From an uncultured Gammaproteobacteria bacterium (GTDB lineage Bacteria; Patescibacteriota; Patescibacteriia; CAZGFX01): a DNA stretch of 64,000 nucleotides. Below, piece by piece: positions 6,521-57,123 of this stretch (its first letter is position 1; each line of letters starts with the position of its first letter). A program made the translations under genes and the position numbers. Below the pieces are notes generated by a model. The model ran no database searches. It was given only the letters and a program-made list of their open reading frames with translations, and was not told the DNA's origin. The stretch is from the NCBI GenBank assembly GCA_964524845.1, contig CAZGFX010000001.1:293034-357033 (forward strand), in the 5' to 3' direction.

Positions 6521-6605
6521 GGACACGTGGCGAAATTGGTATACGCGTACGCTTCAGGAGCGTATGGAGCAATCCGTGAGGGTTCAAATCCCTCCGTGTC
6601 CACCA
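6521..6605 (+). tRNA. tRNA-Leu (anticodon CAG), class II with long variable arm, CCA encoded.
   Basis: Acceptor GGACACG/CGTGTCC, anticodon stem-loop TACGC-TTCAGGA-GCGTA, T arm GAGGG-TTCAAAT-CCCTC, discriminator A, then CCA. Confidence 0.85.
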
Positions 6606-6617
6606 TTCTTTTCATAC

Positions 6618-6652
6618 AAAAAACAAGCCATGAAAAGCTTGTCTTTTTTTAT
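6618..6652 (+). terminator. Terminator hairpin after tRNA-Leu (ACAAGC..GCTTGT then T7).
   Basis: Inverted repeat acaagccatgaaaagcttgt followed by cttttttta. Confidence 0.55.
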
Positions 6653-6710
6653 TTGTGATAAATTACAATCTTCCTTTTTGAATACAAATTACTTTTAAGA
6701 AATATTTTGT

Positions 6711-7859
6711 TTAATATTGATATTTAACCCACCCGTCTTTAGTAAATGTTTGAAGATATGCTTTTCTCCGAGAATTTCCTAATGAATCAAAATCTAATAT
6801 TCCAGCCGCTCCGTTTATTTTAATTTTTCTTAATTCCTTTACTAGATTTTGTGTTGATAAATCTGGTCCAGCCGCTTTTACAACCTTAGCAATAGCATAA
6901 ATATCGTCATATGTATAAGCAGAATCTCCAATAGGATCCTCTTTATATATTTCCTTATATTTTTTAATAAATTCTGCCGATGTTGTATTATTTTTATCTA
7001 ATGAATACCATAAATCAATAACATGCATTTGAAGTAAGGTATCATTTAGTTGTTGATACATAAAAGGAAAACCATATGTCGTGGCTCCAGCAAATAATTT
7101 AAGATTATCAAGGCCAAGAAGTTTGATTTGTTTTGTTATGTTAATGGCTTCATTGCCTGGAAAAGCATAAACCAAAATAGCGTCTGGCTTATTATTTTTT
7201 AATTTTAATAATTGTGTTTTAAAATCCTGATCACCAAAATTGAAATTTTCAATCGTTGTTTTTATATTTCCGACTTCATTAGTAAGGCCATTCAAAAAAA
7301 ATTTTGTATCAGAATAATTTAAAGCAAGAACCCCTAGATTTCTAACTTTTTCTTTAATTATTGCTTCCCCAATCGCTGAACCCGCATCTTGCATATCCCA
7401 ATAATCTCTAAATATCTTATTTCCATCACCAATTTTAGAAACAGTTATTGCAAAATTGATCACATCTTTTTGTTTTATAATTGGAGCAATGGCCTCAGTT
7501 TGAGCGGAAAAACTAGTAAACAAAAATTTCACCTTATCAATATCAATTAATTTATTTGCCGCACTTAATGAATTTGAGACTTTTCCACCATCGTCTTCAA
7601 TAATTAAATGCAGTTTTTTGCCATCCACGCCTCCTTTATTATTAATTTCATTAACAGCCATTTCGAGACCTCTTCTATATTCAACACCATAAGAAGCAAG
7701 CGAACTGGTTAAATCAAGAATTGCGCCAATTTTAATGATTTCATCATTTACTATTTTTTGAGTATTTTTATTAAAGTTCAAAACAAAAACAGATAGGAAA
7801 AATAGAATAATTATACAAATAATTATTTTCGTTCCTTTTTTTATTTTTAAAAAACCCAT
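6711..7859 (-). CDS. ABC transporter substrate-binding protein, branched-chain amino acid-binding (LivJ/LivK-like, Peripla_BP_6) family.
   Basis: 382 aa with an N-terminal signal anchor. Motifs IKIGAILDLTSSLASYG and GGVDGKKLHLIIEDDGGK are typical of type I periplasmic binding proteins. Confidence 0.7.
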   Translation of the reverse strand: MGFLKIKKGTKIIICIIILFFLSVFVLNFNKNTQKIVNDEIIKIGAILDLTSSLASYGVEYRRGLEMAVNEINNKGGVDGKKLHLIIEDDGGKVSNSLSAANKLIDIDKVKFLFTSFSAQTEAIAPIIKQKDVINFAITVSKIGDGNKIFRDYWDMQDAGSAIGEAIIKEKVRNLGVLALNYSDTKFFLNGLTNEVGNIKTTIENFNFGDQDFKTQLLKLKNNKPDAILVYAFPGNEAINITKQIKLLGLDNLKLFAGATTYGFPFMYQQLNDTLLQMHVIDLWYSLDKNNTTSAEFIKKYKEIYKEDPIGDSAYTYDDIYAIAKVVKAAGPDLSTQNLVKELRKIKINGAAGILDFDSLGNSRRKAYLQTFTKDGWVKYQY

Positions 7860-7940
7860 AATAATTTATATTTAAATAAATTAAATCTAATAATAACTAA
7901 TTTATTAAAATACTTCTAATAATCATTATTTATTATATAA

Positions 7941-9020
7941 TTACAATCTTCCTTTATTTATTTGTTCTTTTTGGGCGACAAAATAAATATCCAGAAGAGC
8001 TAGAAAGACAGCCACAATAAGTGGGCCATATACGATGCCCATAATCCCAAACACATTAATTCCCCCAAGAATCGCTAGAAAAATTATAAGAGGATGAACT
8101 TTTATCTTATCGCCAATAACCATCGGTTTTATAACATTATCAACTGATGAAACAATAATCATATTGTATGCTAGAAATCCTATCGCAGGCCACACGTCTC
8201 CCGTTATAAAAAGATATAATGCCGCAGGAATAAATATAATCGCCGTGCCGAACATTGGTATGAATGCCATGATCATCATAATAACTCCCCAAAGCACCGG
8301 CGCGCTTATTCCAAACATCCAAAAACCAAGGCCTCCTAATAATCCTTGTGCGAGTGCGGAAACAAAATTTCCAAAAAACACCGCACGTGCCACCTCTTTA
8401 AACGTATGATACATATACATTTCCTCTTTCGTTTTTAGAGGGCTTAGTCGAATCAAAAAATCTCCAAGCACTGGACCGTCTTTTAAAAGATAATATACAG
8501 TCATCATCATGATGAAGAAACCAACAACAAGTTGGACTACATCAGAAAAAATACCACCAATCTGATTTGAAAGAGATAATCCTATGTTCTTCACCGCTGG
8601 CAAAGCCTGATCCTGAATTACCTGAACGATATCAATATGAAGGCGTTGGGATGTTGAATCGACAAATCTCGCAATAGGGTGTCCGCTTTGAAGAAACGCA
8701 TTTACGTCGGTCGCGAGCACCTGATCTCGCGCAATGGTAAAAATATGGAAGGCTTCTTTTGATAAGACAGTAAGTAAAGAGCTTATCGGACCCAGAATTA
8801 ATATTGCGAGTATAATCACAATGATAATTCCAGCCAATCCTTTGCGCCCTTTGAACTTACCGACAAGCCAGTCGTACCATTTGTAAGAAAGTGCGGCAAA
8901 AGCGGCCCCAAGAACGAGCGGGGTAAAAAATCCGCTTAATACATACAATAAAAAACCAAAGAAAAAGACCACTAGAGCTATAATGATAATATAATGGACA
9001 CTAACTGTATTTGAACTCAT
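7941..9020 (-). CDS. AI-2E family transporter (PerM/UPF0118-like permease).
   Basis: 359 aa, about 8 TM helices, family-typical organisation and C-terminal YFVAQKEQ tail. Confidence 0.65.
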   Translation of the reverse strand: MSSNTVSVHYIIIIALVVFFFGFLLYVLSGFFTPLVLGAAFAALSYKWYDWLVGKFKGRKGLAGIIIVIILAILILGPISSLLTVLSKEAFHIFTIARDQVLATDVNAFLQSGHPIARFVDSTSQRLHIDIVQVIQDQALPAVKNIGLSLSNQIGGIFSDVVQLVVGFFIMMMTVYYLLKDGPVLGDFLIRLSPLKTKEEMYMYHTFKEVARAVFFGNFVSALAQGLLGGLGFWMFGISAPVLWGVIMMIMAFIPMFGTAIIFIPAALYLFITGDVWPAIGFLAYNMIIVSSVDNVIKPMVIGDKIKVHPLIIFLAILGGINVFGIMGIVYGPLIVAVFLALLDIYFVAQKEQINKGRL

Positions 9021-9086
9021 ATTTAAATATTCGCTTATATTGTATCATGATCCGAAACGATAAAAAAGACATTATATATAAAATTA

Positions 9087-9367
9087 TTCGCGCCATGGTC
9101 GGAGATACCCCGCACGATTCACTCCGTTCATCTGCAGGTCACGTCGCTCGCGAGTGATGTGACGGGCCACGTCGTTCGCGCGAACGACGTGGCTGGGCGA
9201 GCCGGACAATAACGATACAATTCTATATAAAATATTTTCTGTGCAATATTATTCGCGCCATGGTCGGAGATACCCCGCACGATTCACTCCGTTCATCTGC
9301 GGGGCGAGCGGGACAACAACAATACAATTCTATATAAAATGTTTTCTGTGCAATATTGTTCGCGCCA
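9087..9367. repeat. Tandem array (2 full units plus the proximal flank) of a copy of the tRNA-Pro(GGG) 3' end with its flank. Each unit is a spacer, an inverted H-a hairpin (CCCCGCA-loop-TGCGGGG), then GTATCTCCGACCA+TGGCGCGAA. The distal unit carries a 66-bp insertion with two perfect palindromes.
   Basis: The 22-mer ttcgcgccatggtcggagatac occurs at 9087, 9252 and 9359 (the last being the real tRNA 3' end). Units are about 107 and 165 bp. The hairpin at 9273..9304 is an inverted copy of the H-a hairpin found on tRNA 5' flanks. Confidence 0.8.
9138..9192. repeat. Two adjacent CG-centred perfect or near-perfect palindromes (gtcacgtcgctcgcgagtgatgtgac 9138..9163 and ccacgtcgttcgcgcgaacgacgtgg 9167..9192) inserted into the stem of an H-a hairpin.
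   Basis: They are present in repeat unit 1 but absent from the otherwise identical unit 2, which has intact tgcgggg. The insertion point lies between ctgc and gggg. Confidence 0.75.
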
Positions 9368-9444
9368 TGGTCGGAGATACGGGACTTGAACCCGTGGCCT
9401 CAAGCACCCCATGCTTGCGCGCTAGCCAACTGCGCTAATCTCCG
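9368..9444 (-). tRNA. tRNA-Pro (anticodon GGG), CCA encoded.
   Basis: rc reads CGGAGAT-TA-GCGC-AGTTGGCTA-GCGC-G-CAAGC-ATGGGGT-GCTTG-AGGCC-ACGGG-TTCAAGT-CCCGT-ATCTCCG-A-CCA. Confidence 0.85.
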
Positions 9445-9554
9445 ATAAATAAGATTGATAGTTTATAAAATTTTTCTACTCATAAAGCAAAAATATTTTG
9501 GTAACCTGCCCCGCGGACGAGTGGTAACGAGTCTTGCGGGGCGCTAATCCCCGA
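9445..9554. repeat. tRNA 5'-flank module: AT-rich spacer (9445..9499), H-a hairpin ggtaacctgccccgc..gcggggc (9500..9542), then a 14-nt copy of the tRNA-Pro 5' end (gcgctaatccccga, 9541..9554).
   Basis: Same architecture as at the other tRNA loci. The copy has 1 mismatch to the adjacent tRNA 5' end. Confidence 0.8.
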
Positions 9555-9569
9555 CCACAGCACGAAGAA

Positions 9570-9854
9570 TTATAAACTCTTTTTATCTTTCGAATAAAAA
9601 TCTACTGATTCGTGAAATATATGCCGATAGATCTTTCTAATAAGAGGTTTTCTAACAAGGTGTTTTTCTGAAATACGATTAATAATTTCGTTTTCTCTTT
9701 TTTTATCCTTAACACCAATTGATTCTTCTTGTTTTATTTTCATAATTTCACGAACAATTTCAAATCGTTCCACAAGAAGCATACAAAGAGCATCATCAAT
9801 ACGATCAATGTGTTCTCTGTATTTTTTAATTTTCTTTTTTATTTCCTCTTCCAT
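9570..9854 (-). CDS. Chorismate mutase (AroQ class, CM_2).
   Basis: 94 aa. LRxxIDxIDxxLxxLLxxR signature (YREHIDRIDDALCMLLVERFEIVREI). Confidence 0.75.
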   Translation of the reverse strand: MEEEIKKKIKKYREHIDRIDDALCMLLVERFEIVREIMKIKQEESIGVKDKKRENEIINRISEKHLVRKPLIRKIYRHIFHESVDFYSKDKKSL

Positions 9855-9859
9855 ATCAA

Positions 9860-11041
9860 TTATATTTTTACAATCTTATATACTTCATCGTTTATTCGTA
9901 AAACACGATCGCACGGAAATGTTATTTTTGACTCCTCGTGATATTCAACACCTGAAACAAAGATTCTTTCTATGCCCGTTGTTGGGCCCTGAACATATAA
10001 TTCGTCTCCTATCATAATTGAACCTTCGCGAACAGTTACTTCGGCAATATCTGATTTTTTAAAATAATTACTAACTATGCCCACTCTCTCTTTTTTCTCG
10101 GTTGCCTGATTGTGTGGCTCAGTCCACCCTTCTACACCAGGAGTTCCGAACAAAAATCCTGTCGAAAACCCTCTGTTGTATACTCGTGTTACATCATTGA
10201 TAAGAGATTTCTTTAATTCGTCTGTGTACACACCATCTCGAATAGCATCAAGAGCGATACGATAAGAATGAGTGACGATAGATGCATATTCAGGGGATCT
10301 CCCTCGTCCTTCTATCTTTAATACATCAGCTCCTGTTTCAACAATTCTATCAAGAAACGAAAGAGTGCAAAGATCTTTTGGACTCATCACATACCCACAC
10401 CCCACGACAAGTTCTCCTCCTGTTTCTTCATCAACAATTTTATATTCTCTACGACATGGTTGAAGACACTCTCCTCTGTTTGCTGATTTTCCTTGTAAAA
10501 ACTGTGACATGAAACATCTTCCGGAAACTGACACACACATTGCTCCGTGACAAAAAACCTCTATTAGACAATTTGTTTTCTTTTTTATATCGGCAATTTG
10601 TTCAAGTGTGCACTCACGCGCAAGCACAATACATCGAGCGCCCTGTGTTTCATAAAAACGTGCCGCAACTGAATTTGATATGCTTGCTTGAGTCGAAATA
10701 TTAAAAGGCATCCCGTATTTTTTGCATGCCTCAATAACCGCAAAATCCCAACATATTACCGCATCGACATCAGCCTTTTTTAAATCACGAACCATTTCAT
10801 CAATTCTTTCAATTTCATTTTCATAAGCTATAACATTCAATGTAATGTGTATCTCAACATTTTTCTCGTGGGCTCGCTTCACTATATCCGGAAGTACTGA
10901 CATGTCAATTCCTTTTGAACTTACGCGCATATTAAGTTCTCCAACACCAAAATATACCGCGTCAGCTCCAGCCGCAAGCGCTGCCGAAAAAGAAATTTCG
11001 TCACGAACAGGCGCTAGAAGTTTTGGGATTTTTATCATCAT
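9860..11041 (-). CDS. Peptidase U32 family protein (YegQ/RlhA-TrhP-like, collagenase-like).
   Basis: 393 aa. N-terminal PELLAPV..A..AGADAVYFG motif and Cys-rich C-terminal region typical of U32. Confidence 0.75.
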   Translation of the reverse strand: MMIKIPKLLAPVRDEISFSAALAAGADAVYFGVGELNMRVSSKGIDMSVLPDIVKRAHEKNVEIHITLNVIAYENEIERIDEMVRDLKKADVDAVICWDFAVIEACKKYGMPFNISTQASISNSVAARFYETQGARCIVLARECTLEQIADIKKKTNCLIEVFCHGAMCVSVSGRCFMSQFLQGKSANRGECLQPCRREYKIVDEETGGELVVGCGYVMSPKDLCTLSFLDRIVETGADVLKIEGRGRSPEYASIVTHSYRIALDAIRDGVYTDELKKSLINDVTRVYNRGFSTGFLFGTPGVEGWTEPHNQATEKKERVGIVSNYFKKSDIAEVTVREGSIMIGDELYVQGPTTGIERIFVSGVEYHEESKITFPCDRVLRINDEVYKIVKI

Positions 11042-11127
11042 ACGACAATAAAGTTACGTGGAAATATTGTTTTTTGCAAGACCTTTATTTAAAAACCAAA
11101 ACAACTCTTTTAGAGAGCTGCTTTGTG

Positions 11128-11204
11128 TGGTCGGGGATATCGGACTTGAACCGACGGCCTTGCGCACCCGAAACGCACGCTCTAGCCAACTGAGCTAATC
11201 CCCG
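11128..11204 (-). tRNA. tRNA-Pro (anticodon CGG), CCA encoded.
   Basis: rc reads CGGGGAT-TA-GCTC-AGTTGGCTA-GAGC-G-TGCGT-TTCGGGT-GCGCA-AGGCC-GTCGG-TTCAAGT-CCGAT-ATCCCCG-A-CCA. Confidence 0.85.
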
Positions 11205-11711
11205 ATGAATAAATTAGATGAATGAACAAAACGTTTTTCTATTCATAAAATACTTATATTTTGGTAACCCGCCCCGCAGACGAATGTAATGAGTCGTGCG
11301 GGGAGCTAATCCCCGATGAATAAATTAGATGAATGAACAAAACGTTTTTCTATTCATAAAATACTTATATTTTGGTAACCCGCCCCGCAGACGAATGTAA
11401 TGAGTCGTGCGGGGAGCTAATCCCCGATGAAAAGCGACTTTTAAATGAAGTGCTATATAACGCTTGAGAAAACTTTAATAATTTGGTAACTGGTCCTCCG
11501 AAGCTTTAGCGTAGGAGGAAGCTCCAGCCATAGGCTGGTCAGCCTCTGGCTGAAATCCCCGATGAATAAATTAGATTAATGAACAAAACGTTTTTCTACT
11601 CATAAAACATTTATATCTTGGTAACCCGCCCCGTCACGTCACTCGCGAGCGACGTGACCCGTCACGTCACTCGCGAGTGACGTGATCCGCAGACGAACAA
11701 AAACATACACC
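11205..11711. repeat. Array of tRNA 5'-flank modules upstream of tRNA-Pro(CGG). Two identical 111-bp units cover 11205..11428 (spacer, H-a ggtaacccgccccgcagacgaatgtaatgagtcgtgcggggag, copy gctaatccccgat). A GC-rich structured block (11480..11549) ends in the copy aatccccgat. A third unit follows whose H-a (11619..) is interrupted by two 26-bp palindromes (11633..11658, 11661..11686).
   Basis: Exact direct repeats are visible in the sequence. The palindrome pair is inserted after ggtaacccgccccg, the equivalent position to the insertion at 9136. Confidence 0.85.
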
Positions 11712-18131: not shown

Positions 18132-18898
18132 GATTTTTCAATAAACAGCAATAGTGAGTCCATGGTTTCCGCAAAAGCTTTGTTTTTAATTACTATCATA
18201 CTTCTTTTTGAGCTTGTTAGATCAGAGAGTACTACATAATCTTTTAAAATAGTAATATTTGTTGTTATATTGGGAAGCTCTGTATGATCAAAAAAAACTC
18301 CTTTTAACTCTTGAACTATTTTGTAATCACTGATATTTTTATTTTTGTCTTTAACATAAACTCCTTCTGTGACAATTCCTGATCGACCACGATCCTGCTG
18401 ATGTTGCTTCTGGCTTTTTATGTTTTTCTTAAACAAATCGAGATTTCCTAATACTTTTATAACTTTAGGGCGAGATGGTAAAATAACGTTTTTTCTAAAC
18501 TCTTCCATTTCGGAATCACTATTAATAACCGTCGTTACGAAATTATTCTGTGCGTAATCTCCCTGAAGCGATTTGAACACATCGTCTATGCGTTCTTTCT
18601 GCGCCTCGAGTTCGGTCGTTAATGAAACTATCTTCGTTTCGTGTTTTTTCTCAACATACTTCTTCAAAAATTCATATGGCGTCGTATAGTAATATCCGAT
18701 TTTTTTAATCCTTCGAATACCTATAATTCCGTTTTCAAGCATTTGCTTAAGCACCGTGGAAACTCGGTTTACTCCCACACCAAACGCTTCAGCAATCTCC
18801 GACTGCGCCTTCTCATTATTTTCGAGCAAATAAAAATATATTTTTGACTCTGTCTCCGTCAAACCTATTTCTTGCAGACTTTTTAAATTTACGGCCAT
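18116..18898 (-). CDS. TrmB-family transcriptional regulator (N-terminal winged HTH).
   Basis: N-terminus LQEIGLTETESKIYFYLLENNEKAQSEIAEAFGVGVNRVSTVLKQMLENGII matches the TrmB HTH domain. Confidence 0.6.
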   Translation of the reverse strand: MAVNLKSLQEIGLTETESKIYFYLLENNEKAQSEIAEAFGVGVNRVSTVLKQMLENGIIGIRRIKKIGYYYTTPYEFLKKYVEKKHETKIVSLTTELEAQKERIDDVFKSLQGDYAQNNFVTTVINSDSEMEEFRKNVILPSRPKVIKVLGNLDLFKKNIKSQKQHQQDRGRSGIVTEGVYVKDKNKNISDYKIVQELKGVFFDHTELPNITTNITILKDYVVLSDLTSSKRSMIVIKNKAFAETMDSLLLFIEKSKKKE

Positions 18899-19001
18899 AT
18901 GTGTTTTATATGTACTCTATTATACCATTTTTGATAAAAAATAATCTATTTTTTGTATGCTGATTTTTAACACTAGATAAACTATAAATAAGCCTTTTCA
19001 T

Positions 19002-20534
19002 TTATATAAATGTATCACTCCTTCTATATCTAAGTGCTTCTATAATGTGTTTTGATGAGATAGCACTATCGCTCTCTAGATCTGCGATTGTCCGCGCAAC
19101 TTTAATTACTTTATGATATGCGCGCATACTCAACCCTAACGATTTCACTGCATTATTCATAATTTTCTCCGATTCTGCGTCGAGCACGCACCATTTCCTA
19201 ACCTCACGCGAGTTCATTCCACCGTTCGTCCTCCCTACTCCAAGTCGTATGTGTTGAATATTTCGAGCAGTAACAATTCTATTTTTTATATCAAATGATG
19301 TTTCCTGAGACTTCTTTCCCATGTCGGAAAATGGCACGCGTGGCACATCAAGATACAAATCGATACGATCAAGTACTGGACCTGATATGCGTTTCTTGTA
19401 TCGTATAATATGATGTCTTGTGCATATGCATTTCTTTTCCGAATCACCAAGATATCCGCACGGACAAGGATTTGTCGCGGCAACAAGAATGAAATCAGCA
19501 GGAAATACGTAGCTCGCATTCGCCCTACTGATGACAACTTCGTGATCTTCGAGTGGTTGGCGAAGCATATCAATACTTCTTCTTGAAAACTCTCCACACT
19601 CATCAAGAAATAATACCCCTCGATGTGCGCGTGTTATTTCTCCGGGACGAGGAATACTTCCTCCTCCAATCAGACTAACATCAGACGAATTGTGATGCGG
19701 CGCGCGAAACGGACGCGTTTTCGCAAGAGTAGTAATCGTTCCAGAATACTCGGTAATACTCCTTATCTTGGTTACTTCCAGAGACTCTTCCTTGGTAAGA
19801 TCGGGTAAAATTGATGGGAGCGTCCTCGCAAGAAGTGTCTTCCCTGATCCCGGAGGTCCAGAAAGTAATATATTATGTCCTCCGGCCGCGACTATTTCTA
19901 ACGCGCGTTTCGCTTCTTCTTGTCCGCATACATCTGAAAAACATAAAAGCTCTTTTTCTTTTTGTATTTTTACTAATTCGTTTTTATTTTTCGAAAAATT
20001 ACGCGAGACAATCTCGTCACAATAATCATTATGAAAAGTTATCAAATCATTCAAATGAGCAATTCCTATTATCACAACACCTTCTATAAGACTCGCCTCA
20101 TGATAATTATCAACCGGTACAAAAACATATTTCATTCCCGTTTCGCGCGCCGCAATAACCGATGCTATCACCCCTCTCACTGGACAAACCCTCCCATCAA
20201 GTGTTAATTCACCTATGTATACACTTTTTTCAAATCCGGAGCGTAATTGCAACTCACCGCTTTCAACAAGTATCGCAAGTGCGATCGGAATATCAAAGCT
20301 CGTCCCTTCTTTTCTAATTGAGGCAGGAGAAAGATTCACAGTAATTTGTGTACGCGGATATTCAAGAACACTATTTGAAATTGCGCTTCGAATTCTCTCG
20401 CGCGCTTCTTGTACCGCAGTATCAGGAAGACCAACAACGATAAACTTAGGCAAGTTTCGACTTATAAAAGCCTGCACTTCGACTATCTTCGCATCAAGTC
20501 CATCGAGTGCGGTCGTATAAATAATGTTTTCCAT
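19002..20534 (-). CDS. comM: YifB/ComM family Mg-chelatase-like AAA+ ATPase.
   Basis: 510 aa. N-terminal ChlI-like domain, Walker A GPPGSGKT, Walker B VLFLDE, C-terminal Mg_chelatase_C domain. Confidence 0.9.
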   Translation of the reverse strand: MENIIYTTALDGLDAKIVEVQAFISRNLPKFIVVGLPDTAVQEARERIRSAISNSVLEYPRTQITVNLSPASIRKEGTSFDIPIALAILVESGELQLRSGFEKSVYIGELTLDGRVCPVRGVIASVIAARETGMKYVFVPVDNYHEASLIEGVVIIGIAHLNDLITFHNDYCDEIVSRNFSKNKNELVKIQKEKELLCFSDVCGQEEAKRALEIVAAGGHNILLSGPPGSGKTLLARTLPSILPDLTKEESLEVTKIRSITEYSGTITTLAKTRPFRAPHHNSSDVSLIGGGSIPRPGEITRAHRGVLFLDECGEFSRRSIDMLRQPLEDHEVVISRANASYVFPADFILVAATNPCPCGYLGDSEKKCICTRHHIIRYKKRISGPVLDRIDLYLDVPRVPFSDMGKKSQETSFDIKNRIVTARNIQHIRLGVGRTNGGMNSREVRKWCVLDAESEKIMNNAVKSLGLSMRAYHKVIKVARTIADLESDSAISSKHIIEALRYRRSDTFI

Positions 20535-20672: not shown

Positions 20673-20750
20673 TGGGGTGATCAACGGGGCTCGAACCCGC
20701 AACCTTCGGGACCACAACCCGATGCTCTAACCAATTGAGCTATGACCACC
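20673..20750 (-). tRNA. tRNA-His (anticodon GTG), with encoded G-1, C73 and CCA.
   Basis: rc reads G-GTGGTCA-TA-GCTC-AATTGGTTA-GAGC-A-TCGGG-TTGTGGT-CCCGA-AGGTT-GCGGG-TTCGAGC-CCCGT-TGATCAC-C-CCA. Confidence 0.85.
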
Positions 20751-21016
20751 ATGAAAAGTAATTTTATACGAGGAAATTATATCATATAACACTAACGCAG
20801 ATAGCTCGGTAACCCGCCCCGCAGATCGAACGAAAGTGAGATTGTGCGGGGAGCTATGACCACCATGAATAACTATGTGGAAACGAATTAATTATATCGA
20901 AATGATATAACATGGATAACTCGGTAACCCGCTCCGTCACGTCATTCGCGAACGGCGTGACCCGCGTAATTGAGCGAAGCGATGGATTTTGGTGGCTCCG
21001 CCACGAGCGAAGCGAG
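20751..21016. repeat. Two tRNA 5'-flank modules between tRNA-His and tRNA-Arg. Module 1 is a spacer, H-a (20808..20853) and the copy ctatgaccaccatg (20854..20867). Module 2 is a spacer and an H-a variant interrupted by the 26-bp palindrome gtcacgtcattcgcgaacggcgtgac (20936..20961), running into the tRNA-Arg 3' flank (gagcgaagcga-motif repeats).
   Basis: Direct sequence comparison with the modules at 9445, 11205 and 21093. The palindrome again sits after ggtaacccgc(t)ccg. Confidence 0.8.
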
Positions 21017-21092
21017 TGGCGCGCCGGGCAGGAATCGAACCTGCGACCTACTGCTTAGAAGGCAGTTGCTCTATCCACTGAGCTACCAGCGC
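21017..21092 (-). tRNA. tRNA-Arg (anticodon TCT), CCA encoded.
   Basis: rc reads GCGCTGG-TA-GCTC-AGTGGATA-GAGC-A-ACTGC-CTTCTAA-GCAGT-AGGTC-GCAGG-TTCGATT-CCTGC-CCGGCGC-G-CCA. Confidence 0.85.
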
Positions 21093-21243
21093 ATGAGAAG
21101 ATGTTTTCTAAATGATAAGTTACTTAATATCGGAGAAAACCACAATGGCTCGGCAACCCGCCCCGCGTAATTGAGCGAAGCGAAATGTTGCGGGGAGCCT
21201 TGCCCCGTAACACGCCGAAGGTGTGTGTACGAGGTACCAGCGC
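21093..21243. repeat. tRNA-Arg 5'-flank module: spacer, H-a variant ggcaacccgccccgc-gtaattgagcgaagcgaaatgtt-gcggggag (21152..21197), a 35-bp extra GC segment, then the copy gtaccagcgca.
   Basis: Same spacer/hairpin/tRNA-5'-copy architecture. The loop shares gagcgaagcga with sequence on the 3' side of tRNA-Arg. Confidence 0.75.
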
Positions 21244-21399
21244 ACAAGAATACAATTTCTAAATGACTGTGAAAAACACACGCATCATACATAAAAAAAA
21301 CAGATTAGTCAACGATATGTGTTTTTATTTTTAAGCTAATTTTAGACATCAAGCGGTGTTATCTTGTGACATAATCTATTAAAAAATATCATATCAAAA

Positions 21400-22004: not shown

Positions 22005-24848
22005 ATGAATTTAAAATTACTTAAATTTTTATTTTGTTCTGCACTTATTGTTTTTTCAATTTGTTTATTTTCTCGTGTTTCAAATGCGGCTCCTGTCACG
22101 GTTGCCGCATTTGAATTAAATGGACTAATAGGAGATGAGGCAACTGTAACAGCAACGACGAACGATACTAATGTTTATACAGCAATACTATCCAGAGGTT
22201 CGGGCATTAATCCTTCGGTTCTTAACAATGCATTTTCATCAACCGCTTTCGTTGTCGGAGGAACAAAAACAGATGCGATAAGTAATAATGAATATTATCA
22301 GTTTGAACTCGAGACAAAATCGAAATATAAACTTTCTCTAAATTATATAAATCTTAATTTAAGAAGAAGTCCAACAGGCCCAAACGCATACCAATGGCAA
22401 TATAGTTTAGATGGTTTTGCTACTGCTGGAACAGACGTTGGCGCAGAAGGCTCTTATACAGGGACAGAAAACGCCGGTCTTGCTATGCCACAGGTTGTTC
22501 TTTCAGGAATTCCTTCTCTACAAAACCTCGAATCAGGTACAAGAGTTACGTTTAGATTATATGCATGGGGATCTACAAACTCAAGCGGAACACTAGGAAT
22601 AGGACGCTTGGCTGGAAATGATCTTTTAATTAATGGCAGTGTTGATTTAATTCTTGCTGCTGGTTTTGATCCAAATGGGCTACTCGGAAACGAAGCAACA
22701 TTCAATTCAACAACAACTCATGTTCGTCTAAACACATCAACTTTATCACGCGGAGTCGGAATAAATCCATCCGCTCTTGCAAATGCTTTTTCTGCAACTA
22801 CTTTCGTTGTTGGCGGAACAAAAGCAGATGCCATAAGTAATAATGAGTATTTTCAAGTTCAAATAGAGGCAAACACTGGGTATAATGTTTCTCTTAATTA
22901 CATTTTTTTTAATTTACGTCGAAGTGCCACAGGACCGAACGCATACCAATGGCAATATAGTCTTGATGGTTTTTCAACGTCCGGAACAGATGTAGGAGAT
23001 GAGGGATTATATACGGGAACAGGTACGAACGGGCTCGCGATGCCACAAATTAATTTATCTACTGTACCAGCATTACAAGGTGTAAAATCAGGAAATATAA
23101 TAACACTTAGACTTTATGCATGGGGAGCTACAAATGCAGGAGGTACTTTAGCAATTGGCAGATTAACCGGAGACGATTTGGATATATACGGATCATTTGC
23201 ATTAAATAATTATACATTAACTTACACGGCAGGAGTAAATGGATCTATTGTTGGTGTTTCGCCACAAACAGTTAATCATGGTAGTGATGGAAGCACTGTA
23301 ACTGCCTCTCCTAATCCTGGATATCATTTTGTTAACTGGAGCGATACATCAACTGCAAACCCAAGAACAGACACTAATGTAACAGGAAATATCTCAGTCA
23401 CAGCGAACTTTGCAATTAACACATATACATTAACTTACACGGCAGGAGTAAATGGATCTATTGTTGGTGTTTCGCCACAAACAGTTAATCATGGTAGTGA
23501 TGGAAGCACTGTAACTGCCTCTCCTAATCCTGGATATCATTTTGTTAACTGGAGCGATACATCAACTGCAAACCCAAGAACAGACACTAATGTAACAGGA
23601 AATATCTCAGTCACAGCGAACTTTGCAATTAACACATATACACTCACCTACACAGCAGGAGTCGGTGGATCAATAACAGGCATGTCCTCTCAAACAGTAA
23701 GTCATGGTAATGATGGTTCCGCAGTTACGGCAACTCCGAACGCCGGATACTCTTTTGTTGACTGGGATGATGGATTAAGAACTAGCACCAGAACTGACAC
23801 GAACATAACAGGAAACAAATCGGTTATAGCTACATTTCAGGTAGATAGACAATCGTCTTCATCCAGTGGCGGAGGAAGTTCAGCTGTATATTCTCCTCCG
23901 GGGTCTGGAACAGGATCTACGGATCGCATCATTCCAATGGATGAAACAAGAGATGTAAGGAACATAGAAACAGACGGAATAAATATTCTTGGTTATATAG
24001 GATCAAAGGCTGTTTTTGAAACAATAGAAAGTAAATCTTTTATAAACGGAAAACACTCGATAACAATTACAAATGTGGATCTTTTTAATAATATAGTTGT
24101 TATTCGCGTAGAATCGACTCCTCAGATAATAAGTCTAAAATTGAAAGAGTTGGCGTATGTTGATTTGGACGATGATCTTGTGCCTGATATATCAATTCAA
24201 TTTAATTCCATATATGTTAATCGAGTCGAACTTACAACAAAATCAATTGTGACTAAAAAAACTGGCGTCGCAACAACAAACCAAGAGATAACACAAACAA
24301 CAAGCAACTTACAAGCTTCTTGCAAACTTATATTTACACGAGATATTAAATCAGGCGCAACAGGAGACGATGTTAAAGAACTTCAAAAATACCTAAACTC
24401 AAAGGGCTTTATTATCACTGAAAAAGGTCCGGGAGCTCCCGGCAATGAGACTACGAAGTTTGGACGATTAACATACAACGCGCTTATCAAGTTTCAGAAA
24501 GCGAATAATATATCACCAATATCTGGAGTGCTTGATAGTACGACTAAAAAATATATAAAGTGCTCAGATGATAAACAAACAGAAACCGCGCCAAAACAAT
24601 CCACTTCGATAAAATTCACTCGCGATCTCAAACCTGGCATGACAGGAGATGATGTTAAAGAATTGCAAAAATATCTCAATACAAATAGCTTTATAATAAC
24701 GGACAAAGGTCCGGGAGCTCCCGGCAATGAGACTACGAAGTTTGGGCGATTAACATACAACGCACTTATCAAGTTTCAGAAAGCAAATAATATAACTCCT
24801 GCGAATGGATATCTGGATTCAACAACAAGAGAATTGCTGAATAAATAA
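22005..24848 (+). CDS. Large cell-surface protein. It has a signal peptide, 2 copies of a ~190-aa N-terminal domain, 3 Listeria-Bacteroides-type repeats (YTLTYTAGVNGSIVGVSPQTV...), a Ser/Gly linker and 2 C-terminal peptidoglycan-binding (PG_binding_1) domains.
   Basis: 947 aa. Internal repeats are visible in the protein. The C-terminal repeats (GATGDDVKELQKYLNSKGF...GNETTKFGRLTYNALIKFQKANNI) match the PGBD consensus. Confidence 0.7.
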   Translation: MNLKLLKFLFCSALIVFSICLFSRVSNAAPVTVAAFELNGLIGDEATVTATTNDTNVYTAILSRGSGINPSVLNNAFSSTAFVVGGTKTDAISNNEYYQFELETKSKYKLSLNYINLNLRRSPTGPNAYQWQYSLDGFATAGTDVGAEGSYTGTENAGLAMPQVVLSGIPSLQNLESGTRVTFRLYAWGSTNSSGTLGIGRLAGNDLLINGSVDLILAAGFDPNGLLGNEATFNSTTTHVRLNTSTLSRGVGINPSALANAFSATTFVVGGTKADAISNNEYFQVQIEANTGYNVSLNYIFFNLRRSATGPNAYQWQYSLDGFSTSGTDVGDEGLYTGTGTNGLAMPQINLSTVPALQGVKSGNIITLRLYAWGATNAGGTLAIGRLTGDDLDIYGSFALNNYTLTYTAGVNGSIVGVSPQTVNHGSDGSTVTASPNPGYHFVNWSDTSTANPRTDTNVTGNISVTANFAINTYTLTYTAGVNGSIVGVSPQTVNHGSDGSTVTASPNPGYHFVNWSDTSTANPRTDTNVTGNISVTANFAINTYTLTYTAGVGGSITGMSSQTVSHGNDGSAVTATPNAGYSFVDWDDGLRTSTRTDTNITGNKSVIATFQVDRQSSSSSGGGSSAVYSPPGSGTGSTDRIIPMDETRDVRNIETDGINILGYIGSKAVFETIESKSFINGKHSITITNVDLFNNIVVIRVESTPQIISLKLKELAYVDLDDDLVPDISIQFNSIYVNRVELTTKSIVTKKTGVATTNQEITQTTSNLQASCKLIFTRDIKSGATGDDVKELQKYLNSKGFIITEKGPGAPGNETTKFGRLTYNALIKFQKANNISPISGVLDSTTKKYIKCSDDKQTETAPKQSTSIKFTRDLKPGMTGDDVKELQKYLNTNSFIITDKGPGAPGNETTKFGRLTYNALIKFQKANNITPANGYLDSTTRELLNK
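23206..23836 (+). repeat. Three tandem ~210-bp intragenic DNA repeats, the first two nearly identical, encoding the Listeria-Bacteroides repeat domains.
   Basis: Direct repeats begin at 23206, 23416 and 23626. Units 1 and 2 are almost 100% identical at the DNA level. Confidence 0.85.
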
Positions 24849-36205: not shown

Positions 36206-39200
36206 TTATTCATCAAAACGGGCAATTGGGATATCTATCTTTTCCCCCTGTTTCTTCGCAAACAATCCTGTTTCAGTTATTTTAAGAATTGCTTTTTTAC
36301 CATCAATAATAACATTTGGATACTTGCCACTCAAAGACATGTTTTTAAAAGAGTCTTCTGTTTCAATTCTCTGTCCACTAATCATAATATTGTCACCTGG
36401 ATGCAAACCATCTTTACCAAAAACAATATCAAGCTTCCTTCCACCTAATTGATCAAGAAGAAGACACTCCTTTACGCCATTCCCTTTGTCCATGGTAAGC
36501 AAAACATTATCAGATTTATTAAAATAATCCGCTTCTATTTTTTCTGCGCCGGACGAATACTCATCGAGATCAATTTTCATTCCTTTTGGGGTTATGACTA
36601 TATTTCCTTCTTCGATTTTAAAATCGTTTTTCTCAACAACAAATTTACTATCAAGTGTCGCTGATCCTTTTGTATCAACTGTTTCTTTCGCTAAATCGGT
36701 TTTTCCTTTGGTATCGATAACATCTTTTTTATCAGTTGTTTCAACGACCTTATCCGTCTTTTCTCCTGTTGTTTTAACTTCTTTTTTATCAATGATATCT
36801 TCTTTTGCCGTAGTTCCGACATCTTTCTTTGCGTTCTCGTCAATAATATTCTTATCATCAACACTGCCACCACCTTTCGTTTCTAATGTTTGATCTTTAT
36901 GTATTTCATCTGAAGAAATATTGTTTTTTGTTCCAATATCTTTTGTTTCAATTGTTTTTGAAACAATCTCGTCTTTTTCAATAGGTGTATGAATTTCTTC
37001 TCCGTTTATTTTTATAATATTTCTATGCATATCAGCATCATATTCAACCGTAACATCGTCCCCCGGATGGATAATAAGTTTGTCCGAGATGTGGTTCTGA
37101 TGCAAAATCTCAGCGGTAAGACGATCGACCGTATGTTGGGCATCTTCAGTTAATGGCATACCCTCTGAATCAAAGTCGTTTTCTGAAAGACCGAGTAACT
37201 TATAACCTAGCATTCCGCGAAACTTCACCTGTTCCGCAACTTCTTTATTAATAATTTTCCACATACTGTCTCCTGCTTGTACTTCTATTGGTTTCAGTGT
37301 AGAAAGATTTGTTTCTTTTACTTCGTTTACAATATCTCCGTGTGATATATTTGTTGTTTCAAGTGTTGTCTCAACTGGCGCAGTAAGCACGGTGTGTTCA
37401 GTTGGTTTAATAATGTTTTCCAAACCGCCACCGGAAGATGTCGCGTTGTGTTCTTCTGATAATTTCTGAATTATTTCTTGCTTTTGATCAACAAGTTTTT
37501 TCACTTCGTCCAATTGTTTTTCAACATTTTCTTTTGCGGATACATCTAAATTATTTTCTTCATTTATCGTTTTTTCTATCTTTTCTTGTGCCTCAACAAT
37601 CGCATTGGATTTAAAAGACACATCTATATCTTCTCCGAAAAACTTATGAAGAAGATCATAAACGACCGGTCCTGCTATACCAACTCCAGTCGCAACGCGT
37701 CCAAGTGCTTGAGCAAAATCTCTTCCTTTTGTAGTGCTCTCTGAACTAAAACCACGCCCAAAAAGCGCGCGAGCGGTTTCGAAAGTGCTTTTCCCATATC
37801 CTTTCATGATCGTGCCGATACGAGATGAGCGTTCTTCTTTCTCTTTGGTTATCAGTTCCTCTGTGCTAAAAAAGTCTCTTTTCCCCGTTTTCGTATTGAT
37901 TACTTTTTCTTCAATTGCTTTTTCCTTTTCTTTTTGTATTTCAAAAAATCTATTCATCTTTATAGTTTTCAGTGAGCCAATAACTTCTTTTGCTTTTTCT
38001 GATACAGGATTTCCTTCCTCATCAAAATCTTCCTTTGAGAGTTTGTGTTTCTCTTTGTTCACAATGACTTCGTGACGAGCTAAAATCTCAGCGCGTTTTT
38101 CCTCATTCCCTTTCAGTTTTTCAAGTGTTTCTATTTTTCTTCTTAGGTACTTCTGCTTCTGTCCTTTTATATTATATTCTGTGCTTTCTCCTTTTCCTTT
38201 TTGATAGAGTGATATTCCAGCATACACGGCACCACGCACACCACGTCCTATAGGACCGGTGATAAGTGAGAGTGGCGTCAAAATACCTGTAATGGCATTT
38301 TTAACCACATCAATCGTCTTTACTTTTGATTCTAGATAATGAGTGAGCACGGACGACTGTTTCATCGAAGTCCTAAATCCGAGTCGTTGTTGATTGTTCG
38401 TGTGCTCTGCAATCATATACGCAAGTTGTTTTTCCAGTTCTTCTTTTTTCTCTTCAGGAAGTTTTGTACTTTCTTTTATCGCGGTTTTGTATTCTTCAAT
38501 TGATTCCCTTAGTGCTTTTTGAGTTTCTGTTTCTTCTTTTTCTCTGTTTTCTTTTTTAATAAACGCAGAAACTTCTATTCCTGACGCTTCCTTTTCTGCA
38601 CGACGTTTTTGAGCATACTCTAAAACCATATTCATCGCCTCTTGTATACGCTCTTTTTCTTTTCCTATTTCTTTCCTCTCGTCAAGAAATGTACGAATGT
38701 CTCCGCTCTTATTATAAATAGCATCATATGCATCAACCCAAAACTTCGCTCCTGTGCCTCGTAAAACACCTTGTTTTATAAACGAATAAATTTTATTCTC
38801 CACAACTTTTTTATCCTCAGGAGAGATAATCGGAGTTTCTGTCTTTGTTTCAATATTGGTATCAACAGAAGTTTCTATTACTGGTAACTCTGTTTCCGGT
38901 TGTTTTTCGGACATTTCTTGTTGTAAAAGATTTGTTTTTCCTTCTATTTCTTTCGTATCTTTATCAATTTTTTGTTCGTTTTCAGAAATAGTATTTTTTG
39001 TATTTTCTTCCAAAAATTCTTTATCAGCACTAGCTTTAATAAGATCTGAGAGTAGTTCTTCTGATGTTTTTTCTTTCTCTCCGTATTCTTCAGATAATTT
39101 TGATACGAAATCTCCTCTTTTTTGATTTTCCTCAAATCCTTCACTTATAGCTGTATTTTCACCCAAATCCAAATCATCAAAATCCCCCTTATCTATTGTT

Positions 39201-40072
39201 GGTGTTTTTATAAACGAACCAAAGTCATCTTTTGTTTCTTGTTTCGTTTTATTTTTCGCACTAGATCTAGAAAACCCTGGTACCGAGACGGCTTTTCTTC
39301 CTGTAATAGGGTCGTATCTTCCTCCTGATGATATTGAAAATATAGTTCTTGATGGTTTTTTAATAGTTTTGTTTTCTGATTCTTTTTTATTAACTGAAGT
39401 TTCTGTTTTTGGCGCGTTTTTCTTCTCAATAACAGCAATAATTTCCTCTATGATCGCGTCAATATCATCAAGGTGTTTTTTATATTCCTTGTTTTCAACG
39501 ATTGTAATAATATTACGCAAAATTCCTGCTTGATTTATATAATACGCAAGTTCTGGGCTTTCAAGATCAAAATCTCCACGAATGTCTCTTACTCTATCCA
39601 GAAAAGACGTCATATCTTTTTTCATCTGCGCCATATCTTTTAAAAACGCTGTTGCTACATCTTCCGCGATGGCTTTTAATTTTCTTTCAATCTTGTTAAT
39701 TGTCTTTTTTATATCATCTGTATTAGAAATAATTTTTTCGTTACTTTCGTCTTCTATAATATTAAAATACTCTCTTCTTTTTTCCGCTAATCGCATAAGA
39801 AGATCCTCTTTCGTTCCTGTTTTTATATTTCTCAGGTCTTTCTCTATCAAATCAAGCCTGTTTTTTAATAACAAAGCTCGCGACACATTGTCGATATCGC
39901 CTTCTTTTACAAATCCTATTTCTTTTGAGGCAACACCTTCTTTTACAATATCTAAAATCTCCGCTAATTTTTTTGTAGCATCTTCCTCGATCGACACGGG
40001 TTCCATAACAGACGTTTCAGGAGAAGTTGTCGGAATGCCGATTTCTATATGTTTTTTTTCTTCGATATTCAT
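36206..40072 (-). CDS. Giant (1288 aa) Lys/Glu-rich coiled-coil protein of unknown function.
   Basis: Continuous ORF with extreme K/E/D content and long heptad-like stretches. No NTPase motifs seen. Confidence 0.7.
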   Translation of the reverse strand: MNIEEKKHIEIGIPTTSPETSVMEPVSIEEDATKKLAEILDIVKEGVASKEIGFVKEGDIDNVSRALLLKNRLDLIEKDLRNIKTGTKEDLLMRLAEKRREYFNIIEDESNEKIISNTDDIKKTINKIERKLKAIAEDVATAFLKDMAQMKKDMTSFLDRVRDIRGDFDLESPELAYYINQAGILRNIITIVENKEYKKHLDDIDAIIEEIIAVIEKKNAPKTETSVNKKESENKTIKKPSRTIFSISSGGRYDPITGRKAVSVPGFSRSSAKNKTKQETKDDFGSFIKTPTIDKGDFDDLDLGENTAISEGFEENQKRGDFVSKLSEEYGEKEKTSEELLSDLIKASADKEFLEENTKNTISENEQKIDKDTKEIEGKTNLLQQEMSEKQPETELPVIETSVDTNIETKTETPIISPEDKKVVENKIYSFIKQGVLRGTGAKFWVDAYDAIYNKSGDIRTFLDERKEIGKEKERIQEAMNMVLEYAQKRRAEKEASGIEVSAFIKKENREKEETETQKALRESIEEYKTAIKESTKLPEEKKEELEKQLAYMIAEHTNNQQRLGFRTSMKQSSVLTHYLESKVKTIDVVKNAITGILTPLSLITGPIGRGVRGAVYAGISLYQKGKGESTEYNIKGQKQKYLRRKIETLEKLKGNEEKRAEILARHEVIVNKEKHKLSKEDFDEEGNPVSEKAKEVIGSLKTIKMNRFFEIQKEKEKAIEEKVINTKTGKRDFFSTEELITKEKEERSSRIGTIMKGYGKSTFETARALFGRGFSSESTTKGRDFAQALGRVATGVGIAGPVVYDLLHKFFGEDIDVSFKSNAIVEAQEKIEKTINEENNLDVSAKENVEKQLDEVKKLVDQKQEIIQKLSEEHNATSSGGGLENIIKPTEHTVLTAPVETTLETTNISHGDIVNEVKETNLSTLKPIEVQAGDSMWKIINKEVAEQVKFRGMLGYKLLGLSENDFDSEGMPLTEDAQHTVDRLTAEILHQNHISDKLIIHPGDDVTVEYDADMHRNIIKINGEEIHTPIEKDEIVSKTIETKDIGTKNNISSDEIHKDQTLETKGGGSVDDKNIIDENAKKDVGTTAKEDIIDKKEVKTTGEKTDKVVETTDKKDVIDTKGKTDLAKETVDTKGSATLDSKFVVEKNDFKIEEGNIVITPKGMKIDLDEYSSGAEKIEADYFNKSDNVLLTMDKGNGVKECLLLDQLGGRKLDIVFGKDGLHPGDNIMISGQRIETEDSFKNMSLSGKYPNVIIDGKKAILKITETGLFAKKQGEKIDIPIARFDE

Positions 40073-54144: not shown

Positions 54145-54232
54145 GCGCGTAGGATGGAGGAGAGGAAGGGATTCGAACCCTCGATCCCTTGCGGGACACA
54201 GCGTTTCGAGTGCTGCGCATTCAACCACTCTG
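54145..54232 (-). tRNA. tRNA-Ser (anticodon CGA), class II, CCA encoded, unusual U73 discriminator.
   Basis: rc reads GGAGAGG-TG-GCA-GAGTGGTTGAA-TGC-G-CAGCA-CTCGAAA-CGCTG-TGTCCCGCAAGGGATC-GAGGG-TTCGAAT-CCCTT-CCTCTCC-T-CCA. The anticodon loop is identical to E. coli serU. There is an A31-C39 mismatch. Confidence 0.75.
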
Positions 54233-54459
54233 CCACCTCTCCATATGAGAAAATATTACAACCAAAGTATACAATTAAACAAGAAAAATGTTTTAAACAA
54301 GGAGCTTGCCCTGTAGTTCGAGCGTAAGCGAGAACGTACCAGGGCCACCTCTCCATATGAGAAAATATTACAACCAAAGTATACAATTAAACAAGAAAAA
54401 TGTTTTAAACAAGGAGCTTGCCCTGTAGTTCGAGCGTAAGCGAGAACGTACCAGGGCCA
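54233..54459. repeat. Two identical 112-bp tRNA 5'-flank modules upstream of tRNA-Ser(CGA). Each is a spacer, the H-b hairpin ggagcttGCCCTGtagttcgagcgtaagcgagaacgtacCAGGGC, and the copy cacctctccat.
   Basis: Exact direct repeat, which also generates identical peptide stretches in spurious ORFs 54048..54386 and 54256..54516. The spacer carries TTGTTT-N18-TAATAT (promoter-like) in tRNA orientation. Confidence 0.85.
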
Positions 54460-54594
54460 CCTCTCCATATTTAAAAACAATGTTATAAAGAAACAATTGT
54501 AGATTATCAAAATCATTATTTAAAAACAACTACAAAAAGCGCGTTTCATCGCAAAGAAAATCCCCGCCTGCTTTTGTTGCAAACGGGGATAAAA

Positions 54595-56406: not shown

Positions 56407-56495
56407 TGGCGGAGGGAGAGGGATTCGAACCCTCGGTACCTTTACGGTACGCCACCTTTCCAAGATGGTGCACTCGACCACTATGCGACCCCTCC
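56407..56495 (-). tRNA. tRNA-Ser (anticodon GGA), class II, CCA encoded.
   Basis: rc reads GGAGGGG-TC-GCA-TAGTGGTCGAG-TGC-A-CCATC-TTGGAAA-GGTGG-CGTACCGTAAAGGTACC-GAGGG-TTCGAAT-CCCTC-TCCCTCC-G-CCA. Confidence 0.85.
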
Positions 56496-56866: not shown

Positions 56867-56965
56867 GTGCAATAACTCCACAATACTACACGAAAAAACG
56901 CTTTATGCCAACATGAAAAACGGTTGATTTTGATACAAAAATGTGTTAATTTCCTATTGTTCTCT

Positions 56966-57123
56966 TTTCGTGGGTGAGTACCCTGTACAATCTCGCTAAC
57001 GCTCGATTTACATGGCAGGGCTTCCCGCACAATCTCACTTTCGTTCAATTTGCGGGACGGGTTACCGAACTATTTATGTCGTGTTAGTATGATATAATCT
57101 ATTCATACAAAAATACTTTTCGT
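56966..57123 (+). repeat. tRNA-Ile 5'-flank module on the + strand. It comprises the copy ttttcgtgggtgagta, the H-b hairpin (56981..57020), an inverted H-a hairpin (57021..57070) nearly identical to the reverse complement of the tRNA-His H-a, and an AT-rich spacer containing TATAAT (57093..57098).
   Basis: The modules keep the same orientation relative to the tRNA although this tRNA is on the opposite strand. That shows the association is with the tRNA 5' end, not with the genome strand. Confidence 0.8.

Follow-up and report, generated by a model that had tools for sequence, protein, structure and literature searches.

The tRNA-Pro(GGG) gene in a 64-kb window of DNA (the whole of the stretch analysed here) is followed on its 3' side by a tandem array in which the end of the tRNA and a short piece of genomic flank have been copied twice, each copy being fused to a GC-rich hairpin. 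We propose tentatively, with confidence that falls a little short of even, that this array is a mirror-image member of a family of hairpin cassettes that is repeatedly added at tRNA gene termini by a target-copying process. All counts of tRNA loci given below refer to the nine tRNA genes of the window, and the comparison set beyond it consists of five distant relatives.

The tRNA-Pro(GGG) gene is intact, includes an encoded CCA and lies on the minus strand at 9368–9444 (ARAGORN; 62.3 bits against the Rfam tRNA model). Its last 13 nucleotides (nt; 9368–9380) together with 9 nt of 3' flank (9359–9367) make up a 22-mer (9359–9380, minus strand) that is used here as the reference for the array. 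On the plus strand this 22-mer reads TTCGCGCCATGGTCGGAGATAC, the reverse complement of the tRNA end including CCA plus the flank, and it is present without any mismatch at 9087, 9252 and 9359, the last of these being the real end. An earlier reading of the letters alone (the sequence-only reading) had claimed exactly two extra copies, and that count is correct. No other match with up to three mismatches is present in the window and 100 shuffles gave 0 matches. The first extra copy spans 9252–9273 and the second 9087–9108, both exact and on the minus strand, and Logan contig L075 bears out the junction of the second copy with the outer flank. Across 53 nt (9083–9135 and 9248–9300) the extra copies do not differ from one another, and each has exactly 22 nt in common with the real tRNA end.

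Each extra copy abuts a hairpin of the form CCCCGCA..TGCGGGG, with the last C of the copy doubling as the first C of the stem. In the proximal unit this main-family hairpin (CCCCGCACGATTCACTCCGTTCATCTGCGGGG; CCCCGCA-N18-TGCGGGG) spans 9273–9304 on the plus strand and is followed by a spacer (9305–9358, minus strand) in which AT-rich sequence comes after a GC-rich tail (CGAGCGGGACAAC on the plus strand) that adjoins the hairpin. The distal unit has a weaker-stem copy of the hairpin (9108–9138, plus strand), the 3' arm of which now reads TGCAGG through the insertion of palindromes, and a spacer (9194–9251, minus strand) that is 93% identical to the proximal one. Measured from start to start, the units are 107 nt (9252 to 9359) and 165 nt (9087 to 9252) long. 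The 58-nt excess of the distal unit corresponds to two near-perfect palindromes inserted within the hairpin stem at 9138–9193, namely GTCACGTCGCTCGCGAGTGATGTGAC at 9138–9163 and GCCACGTCGTTCGCGCGAACGACGTGGC at 9166–9193. Near-perfect palindromes of 26–28 nt (GTCACGTCGCTCGCGAGTGACGTGAC type) are also found at 11630–11689 and at ∼20950–20980, some of them in tandem with a period of 28, and they sit in or beside main hairpins. Apart from the 58-nt insertion the two units differ by six substitutions, and they are 93% identical across 82 nt. The outer flank (9044–9086, minus strand) resembles a decayed and partly deleted third spacer (AACGATA...ATTATATATAAAAT), a weak likeness judged by eye, and lies just upstream of an AI-2E transporter gene (9020-7941, minus strand). 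A consensus scan called no terminator or promoter inside 9087–9367, and a search of the array for a Tpr-like small open reading frame (ORF) gave nothing convincing.

Arrays of this kind could be mis-expanded repeats of an assembly. SRR12133403 yields two Logan contigs that are 100% identical to the window, one over 9271–11221 and the other over 6538–9112. Both end inside the repeat and between them span the junctions of flank, 22-mer and hairpin and those of hairpin, spacer and tRNA. The junctions are therefore real, since two independent contigs carry them at 100% identity. The short-read contigs break within the repeat, so that the copy number rests on the present assembly. However, the two units differ from each other by the insertion and substitutions described above, analogous arrays are present at six other tRNAs and both kinds of junction recur in the independent assembly. 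We regard an artefact as extremely unlikely.

The 5' side of the same gene carries the corresponding arrangement. A 5' spacer and leader (9445–9508, minus strand), with a promoter-like TTGCTT-17-TATAAA that was identified by eye and not called by the consensus scan, is preceded by a main-family hairpin (9509–9541, minus strand), a copy of tRNA nucleotides 1–13 (9541–9553, minus strand; CGGGGATTAGCGC, 12 of 13 positions identical) and a further leader segment (9554–9566, minus strand; TTCGTGCTGTGGT) that repeats the trailer ACCATGGCGCGAA in inverted orientation. Read along the plus strand, the 3' module has the same order as the 5' module has in the tRNA direction, that is, end copy, hairpin, GC-rich tail, AT-rich spacer and tRNA end, and the hairpin has the same orientation in both. 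The gap between hairpin and tRNA is 63–64 nt on both sides. Copies on the 3' side are present only at tRNA-Pro(GGG), which is thus the sole tRNA with copies on both sides. The proposal that the tRNA is bracketed by a 5' copy, hairpin and spacer and by a spacer, inverted hairpin and 3' copy is hence supported, with the mirror order being exact. The suggestion that the inverted hairpin has a loop about 70% identical to the 5' loops is likewise borne out, as it agrees in mirror orientation with the 5' hairpin of tRNA-Pro(CGG) at 13 of 18 loop positions and at 26 of 31 hairpin positions (84%). When the whole modules were aligned (3' modules reverse-complemented), scores of 52–53 were obtained, compared with 18±3 for shuffles (maximum 28).

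One to four intact 5' modules lie in front of seven of the nine tRNA genes (Pro-GGG, Pro-CGG, His, Arg, Ser-CGA, Ser-GGA and Ile). Each module consists of the last leader bases, the first 9–13 nt of the tRNA's own sequence, one or more GC-rich hairpins, a short tail (often CGGGTTACCRA) and ∼55 nt of AT-rich, promoter-like sequence with leader. The copies are specific to each tRNA, and the expectation for an 8-mer copy within 400 nt is only ∼0.006 per tRNA. Hairpin cassette and end copy occur together at 7/7 of these tRNAs and at 0/2 of the plain tRNAs, Pro-TGG and Leu, from which end copy, hairpin and tail are all absent.

The arrays vary in size and state of preservation. Four 5' modules lie upstream of tRNA-Pro(CGG) (11205–11700, minus strand), two of them 100% identical with a 111-nt period, and tRNA-Ser(CGA) has two 100% identical modules of 112 nt (54243–54470, minus strand). 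The corresponding perfect tandem repeats extend over 11192–11431 and 54232–54470, and each 111- or 112-nt unit contains the first 13 or 11 nt of the tRNA, a hairpin and a promoter-like spacer. The complete identity of these units shows recent amplification. The Pro(CGG) array is mixed, in that an unrelated cassette (c) lies between the similar cassettes d, b and a. At tRNA-Ser(GGA) (56496–56900, minus strand) two modules have intact end copies of 11–12 nt and two to three distal ones are decayed, as judged by eye; the spacer types from the far end towards the tRNA are a, b, b and a, with module b again an unrelated cassette in the array. tRNA-His and tRNA-Arg have one 5' module each, with a further cassette between both genes (20750–21260, minus strand), and the 5' module of tRNA-Ile(TAT) (56960–57123, plus strand) contains two hairpins. 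The genes for tRNA-Arg and tRNA-His may form one operon that reads through the modules. A strong promoter-like TTGACT-17-TATGAT is situated at 21280–21310, upstream of the distal tRNA-Arg 5' copy. GC-rich trailer hairpins lie directly 3' of the Arg (21017–21092), Ser(CGA) (54155–54242), Ser(GGA) (56407–56495) and Ile (57124–57200) genes. These contain the encoded CCA end or pair with it (CGCCA-N13-TGGCG for tRNA-Arg), and their loops often contain TCGCTTCGCTC.

GC-rich hairpins are far more abundant in the window than expected by chance (51 versus 0–6 in shuffles). Those of the type CCCCGCR..YGCGGGG are found only 64–180 nt from tRNAs, with the proximal foot 63–68 nt from the gene end, and this holds on both sides of Pro(GGG). 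In an alignment of the stems 91.5% of cells are paired and 6 of 11 pairs show double changes; none of 500 shuffles was as good, and pairing falls to 33–48% once the partner strand is slid. The hairpins are one diverging family in which the stem is kept by compensatory change. Homology also extends between cassettes at different tRNAs. Against a null for local scores of 14.7±2.6 (maximum 25), the His and Ile cassettes, which are 36 kb apart, score 114 with ∼80% identity, the Pro(CGG) and Pro(GGG) cassettes score 82 and the Arg and Ile cassettes score 52. The 3' cassette scores 41 against both Pro(CGG) and His. Relatedness is likewise seen among the spacers of the class-I tRNA modules (z=3–9.6).

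The inner breakpoint of the copies is fixed relative to the tRNA end. The copies are 13 nt long at Pro(CGG) (twice), at His and on both sides of Pro(GGG), where the 3' breakpoint lies 13 nt from the CCA end, and 11–12 nt long at the Ser tRNAs. On our reading the breakpoint of Arg and Ile is also nucleotide 13, once a later hairpin insertion between nucleotide 9 and a remnant GGCT is discounted. Over nine non-identical modules the end copies agree with the tRNA at 98 of 99 positions, yet the 55 nt upstream are only 48–68% identical to those of the next unit. Simple duplication followed by neutral decay is thereby excluded, because copy and flank would then have diverged together.

Plain tandem duplication by slippage or unequal crossing-over, with the hairpins as bystanders or join-points similar to repetitive extragenic palindromic (REP) sequences and nothing inserted, must nonetheless be weighed. 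REP elements are known as join-points of duplications. The close similarity of the two 3' units, including the 53 exact nucleotides in common, is what such a process would produce, as are the 100% identical tandem units elsewhere in the window and the likeness of the outer flank to a decayed third spacer. Among known systems, the tyrT-tyrV locus of E. coli comes closest. In that bacterium, the tyrT units share a transcript with the tRNA, and the repeats release the rtT RNA. Our check of the E. coli K-12 sequence shows that tyrV is followed, in the rttR/tpr region, by three repeats with a 178-nt period that contain the last 19 nt of tRNA-Tyr and 2 nt of flank. As in the present array, tandem units directly downstream of a tRNA each hold a 3' segment of the tRNA, CCA and flank. 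Unlike the present array, tyrT-tyrV is a single locus with a 19-nt copy that starts in the T-loop, and it has no hairpin fusion, no 5' counterpart and no tRNA-wide family. The tyrT repeats give rise to a processed small RNA, annotated rttR (10.1101/2024.07.17.603846). Duplication does not account for a first junction that arose independently at seven tRNAs at the same position (nucleotide 13) and always at the foot of the same hairpin family. Nor does it account for unrelated cassettes within one array, for homologous cassettes at different tRNAs, or for near-perfect end copies beside diverged flanks. We therefore consider it unlikely as the general explanation.

For the proposed addition of hairpin cassettes at tRNA termini, we infer the following order of events and mechanism. 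The cassette itself is ∼95–100 bp long, with an outer GC-rich imperfect hairpin and short GC-rich tail and an inner AT-rich part of ∼55 nt. Each addition would spare the gene and leave on its outer side a fresh copy of the tRNA terminus, comprising 13 nt (in class-I tRNAs) and a few flank bases (9 in the 3' array). Such a process would copy its target, by target-site duplication, copy-choice or gap repair, and would not involve strand exchange at a core shared with the element. New units would arise next to the tRNA, with older ones lying further out and decaying, and arrays would also grow by unequal recombination between units. The 3' units are probably co-transcribed with tRNA-Pro(GGG), since no terminator is predicted between the tRNA and the array. 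By analogy with the release of rtT RNA from the tyrT repeats, they might be cut at the repeated ...ACCA/UGGCGCGAA sites, which would give RNAs of 107 and 165 nt ending in ...GUAUCUCCGACCA.

Several observations weigh against cassette addition by target copying. The spacer on the 3' side of Pro(GGG) is unrelated to all 5' spacers in either orientation (z≤3.4), and its derivation from a 5' promoter cassette was rejected. The likeness of the 3' cassette to the others is apparently confined to the hairpin, because its spacer matches no 5' spacer. For the 3' array taken alone, plain local duplication is indeed a fair alternative that fits equally well, given that its units are 93% identical and that its spacer is unlike the 5' cassettes but like the outer flank. 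On its outer side the duplicated segment ends at variable positions (1–9 flank bases; 11–22 nt in total), unlike the product of a fixed staggered cut, so that template switching or gap repair fits better than such a cut. The cassettes have no terminal inverted repeats, as the hairpin is present at one end only. No integrase, recombinase, transposase, HUH, Cas1 or reverse transcriptase domain was detected with Pfam among the ∼50 ORFs of the window. Among 185,579 species genomes the pattern CCCCGC-N14-24-GCGGGGCGGGTTACC was matched seven times, each time in an unrelated GC-rich genome. A looser hairpin pattern gave 63 matches in JGI metagenomes, of which two were in low-GC contigs and neither of these was family-like. 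Scans of viral contigs gave no match to the 22-mer or the 3' end of the tRNA, nor to the main hairpin or the 28-nt palindrome. The case for mobility rests on one 64-kb window, since the exact hairpin family is absent from the genome, metagenome and viral scans.

A bolder form of this proposal is that the cassettes are an undescribed type of mobile or self-copying DNA, ∼100 bp long, headed by a hairpin and equipped with a promoter on the 5' side. It would be inserted 13 nt into tRNA termini on either strand, would regenerate the gene and would build polar arrays at most tRNA genes. We hold this with low confidence. Template switching, casposase-like integration and structure-guided transposition are candidate activities for such an element.

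The duplication of a tRNA 3' end plus flank had originally been likened to the attL and attR scars of site-specific integration. In its most specific form this explanation invokes miniature non-autonomous elements, similar to cis-mobilizable elements (CIMEs), that were integrated in tandem at the tRNA 3' end through a 22-nt core by a tyrosine integrase acting in trans, giving attL, attI and attR. Exact direct repeats of the tRNA 3' end and flank do bound the inserts (the 22-mer occurs three times with 0 expected), just as in att repeats and tandem CIMEs, in which arrays with one core are possible. Among the relatives, L077 (ENA ERZ21878585 contig_3, 9150–9402) has a more att-like arrangement 3' of its tRNA-Pro(CGG), with a 46-nt direct repeat, corresponding to the last 20 nt of the tRNA (from the T-loop) and a terminator, on either side of a 128-nt GC-rich insert that contains hairpins. 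A second relative, L076, has a large serine recombinase gene (18425–19982; Resolvase, Recombinase and Zn_ribbon_recom domains) that abuts tRNA-Glu(CTC), a locus that is probably an integrated element.

The part of the att interpretation that stands is that DNA was added at a tRNA end with the end being re-copied; the part that does not is the attribution to conservative site-specific integration. Here the inner breakpoint is set by distance from the tRNA end and not by a common core, no recombinase was found in the window and no attP-like match was found among viral contigs. The unit between repeats is only ∼85 bp, which leaves little room for arm sites and also justifies the doubt that had been expressed about the usual genomic-island picture. 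Moreover, the same hairpin cassettes carry tRNA-specific copies at 5' ends. Conservative recombination cannot give tRNA-specific repeats around homologous cassettes, because an integrase needs a core common to element and target. We consider integration scars to be very unlikely, albeit with a small probability for this one 3' array in view of the more att-like repeat of L077.

L077 has no integrase near its 46-nt repeat and lacks the insert that is found in two other relatives, L001 (8470–8555) and L002 (9149–9235). In both, the leader contains nine nucleotides copied from the 5' end of tRNA-Pro(CGG). This copy is part of a hairpin and follows just downstream of a conserved extended −10 element (TGYTATAGT), and between the two genomes copy and partner strand change together with the tRNA (GCTATA/TATAGC versus GTTATA/TATAAC). 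Thus, short insertions with tRNA-end copies at their borders are a recurrent feature of this bacterial group, and the genome of the window has far more of them. With regard to the near-perfect palindromes, a GACGTG motif is likewise present in the L077 insert of 128 nt.

The copies might alternatively be kept for a function at the RNA level. The leader and 5' copy (TTCGTGCTGTGGTCGGGGAT) can pair with ATCTCCGACCATGGCGCGAA at 20 of 20 positions (16 Watson–Crick pairs and 4 G–U), and the leader with the acceptor copy can form this 20-bp stem with any of the three 3' 22-mers. All four non-Watson–Crick positions are G–U on the sense strand, for which the chance is ∼1% by a rough estimate. In the predicted minimum-energy fold of 9060–9600 (z=−7.2) the 5' module and the first 3' module are paired with each other and enclose the tRNA. 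The predicted leader–trailer stem hints at selection on RNA, and a processing stem that frees the tRNA from a long transcript is conceivable because the neighbouring genes are on the same strand and the array has no predicted terminator. The explanation would be that the 5' copy with leader and the 3' copy with trailer form an RNase III-type stem that excises the tRNA from a transcript running from the U32 peptidase and chorismate mutase genes through the tRNA to the AI-2E transporter gene or, more generally, that end copies and hairpins act as processing or decoy sites in pre-tRNAs. The 5' copies of L001 and L002, with partner strands that co-change with the tRNA, and the persistence of perfect end copies beside diverged flanks are consistent with this. 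However, any inverted repeat in DNA yields such folds, copies are present on both sides at one tRNA only and no Rfam family matches. In addition, one old distal copy at Ser(GGA) has decayed (7 of 12 positions by eye) even though its spacer is ∼95% conserved. A role of this kind is quite unlikely to be the reason for the copies.

Among known repeat systems, Correia elements of Neisseria are transposable elements of the miniature inverted-repeat kind (MITEs) of ∼100–150 bp that carry promoters and form RNA hairpins, and they are bounded by terminal inverted repeats and by a TA duplication of fixed length. Our cassettes are similar in size, in the putative ability to bring promoters to neighbouring genes and in forming RNA hairpins. 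They differ from MITEs in that the hairpin is at one end only, and from Correia elements also in that the duplication is an 11–22-nt tRNA terminus. At Pro(GGG) it is the entire tRNA locus that the inverted repeat encloses. Similarity to REP, BIME and REPIN sequences lies in the GC-rich imperfect palindromes of 28–35 nt, which fall into several subfamilies, have compensatory stems, cluster and insert into each other. REP, BIME and REPIN sequences are palindromic repeats tagged by GTAG or CGTC (PMC3733652, PMC3116915). CGTC/GACG is next to or in the stem of some of the hairpins (Pro hairpins and 28-nt palindromes) and is absent in others. Unlike REP sequences, the hairpins occur in the window only beside tRNAs, at a fixed distance and orientation and fused to a tRNA-end copy, and no RAYT gene or Y1 transposase was found in the window.

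Integron and CRISPR arrays share a layout only, namely polar growth at a fixed site with a hairpin at the far end of the unit and, for CRISPR arrays and casposons, duplication of the target. They differ in that IntI, Cas1 and attC R/L boxes are absent here, that the units are neither ORFs nor spacers and that the growth site is a tRNA terminus. TIGR arrays have 36-nt units and tas (Nop-domain) genes (PMC12045711). Both CRISPR and TIGR arrays were rejected as candidates, since the present units are 107–165 nt long and anchored at a tRNA, with no cas or tas genes among the ORFs of the window. The possibility that the modules are degenerate tRNAs was also rejected, as no match to the tRNA model was obtained at E≤5, and derivation of the hairpin from a tRNA arm is unsupported (by eye). 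Besides the tRNAs themselves, Rfam searches with the gathering score and at E≤5 gave no match for the modules. We have filed the array with tRNA-distal repeats and REP-like palindromes. Published accounts of hairpins joined to tRNA-end copies in Patescibacteria were not found, which is a weak negative in view of the partial literature coverage.

The host organism is a Patescibacteria bacterium of the candidate phyla radiation (CPR). Named matches of its U32 peptidase are 62–65% identical (Abawacabacteria, Uhrbacteria and unclassified Patescibacteria), and apart from one 100% Logan match every match is at ≤65%. The genes for the U32 peptidase, chorismate mutase, tRNA-Pro(GGG) and AI-2E transporter are all on the same strand. 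Within the U32 peptidase gene there is a weak match to the RAGATH-1 hammerhead (10376–10489; 24 bits compared with the 56 needed, E=0.49) that is probably due to chance. Elsewhere in the window, a 947-residue protein with InlB B-repeat and peptidoglycan-binding domains is encoded with in-frame 213-nt tandem repeats (2.8 copies, 23211–23815), and an ORF of 1,288 codons (36206–40072) has no Pfam match.

The arrays have practical consequences. At most tRNA genes they interrupt the short-read assembly of Patescibacteria genomes, which both Logan contigs illustrate, and tools that seek tRNA fragments would misread them as the att sites of genomic islands. If they are merely tyrT-like duplications seeded by REP-like palindromes, they represent a tidy case of ordinary repeat dynamics. 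If cassettes are indeed added at tRNA termini by copying of the target, they would constitute a new type of small repeat, the target of which is defined by structure or by an end and not by sequence. They would also provide these bacteria with a new route to rewire tRNA genes, through the addition of promoters and leaders without damage to the gene.

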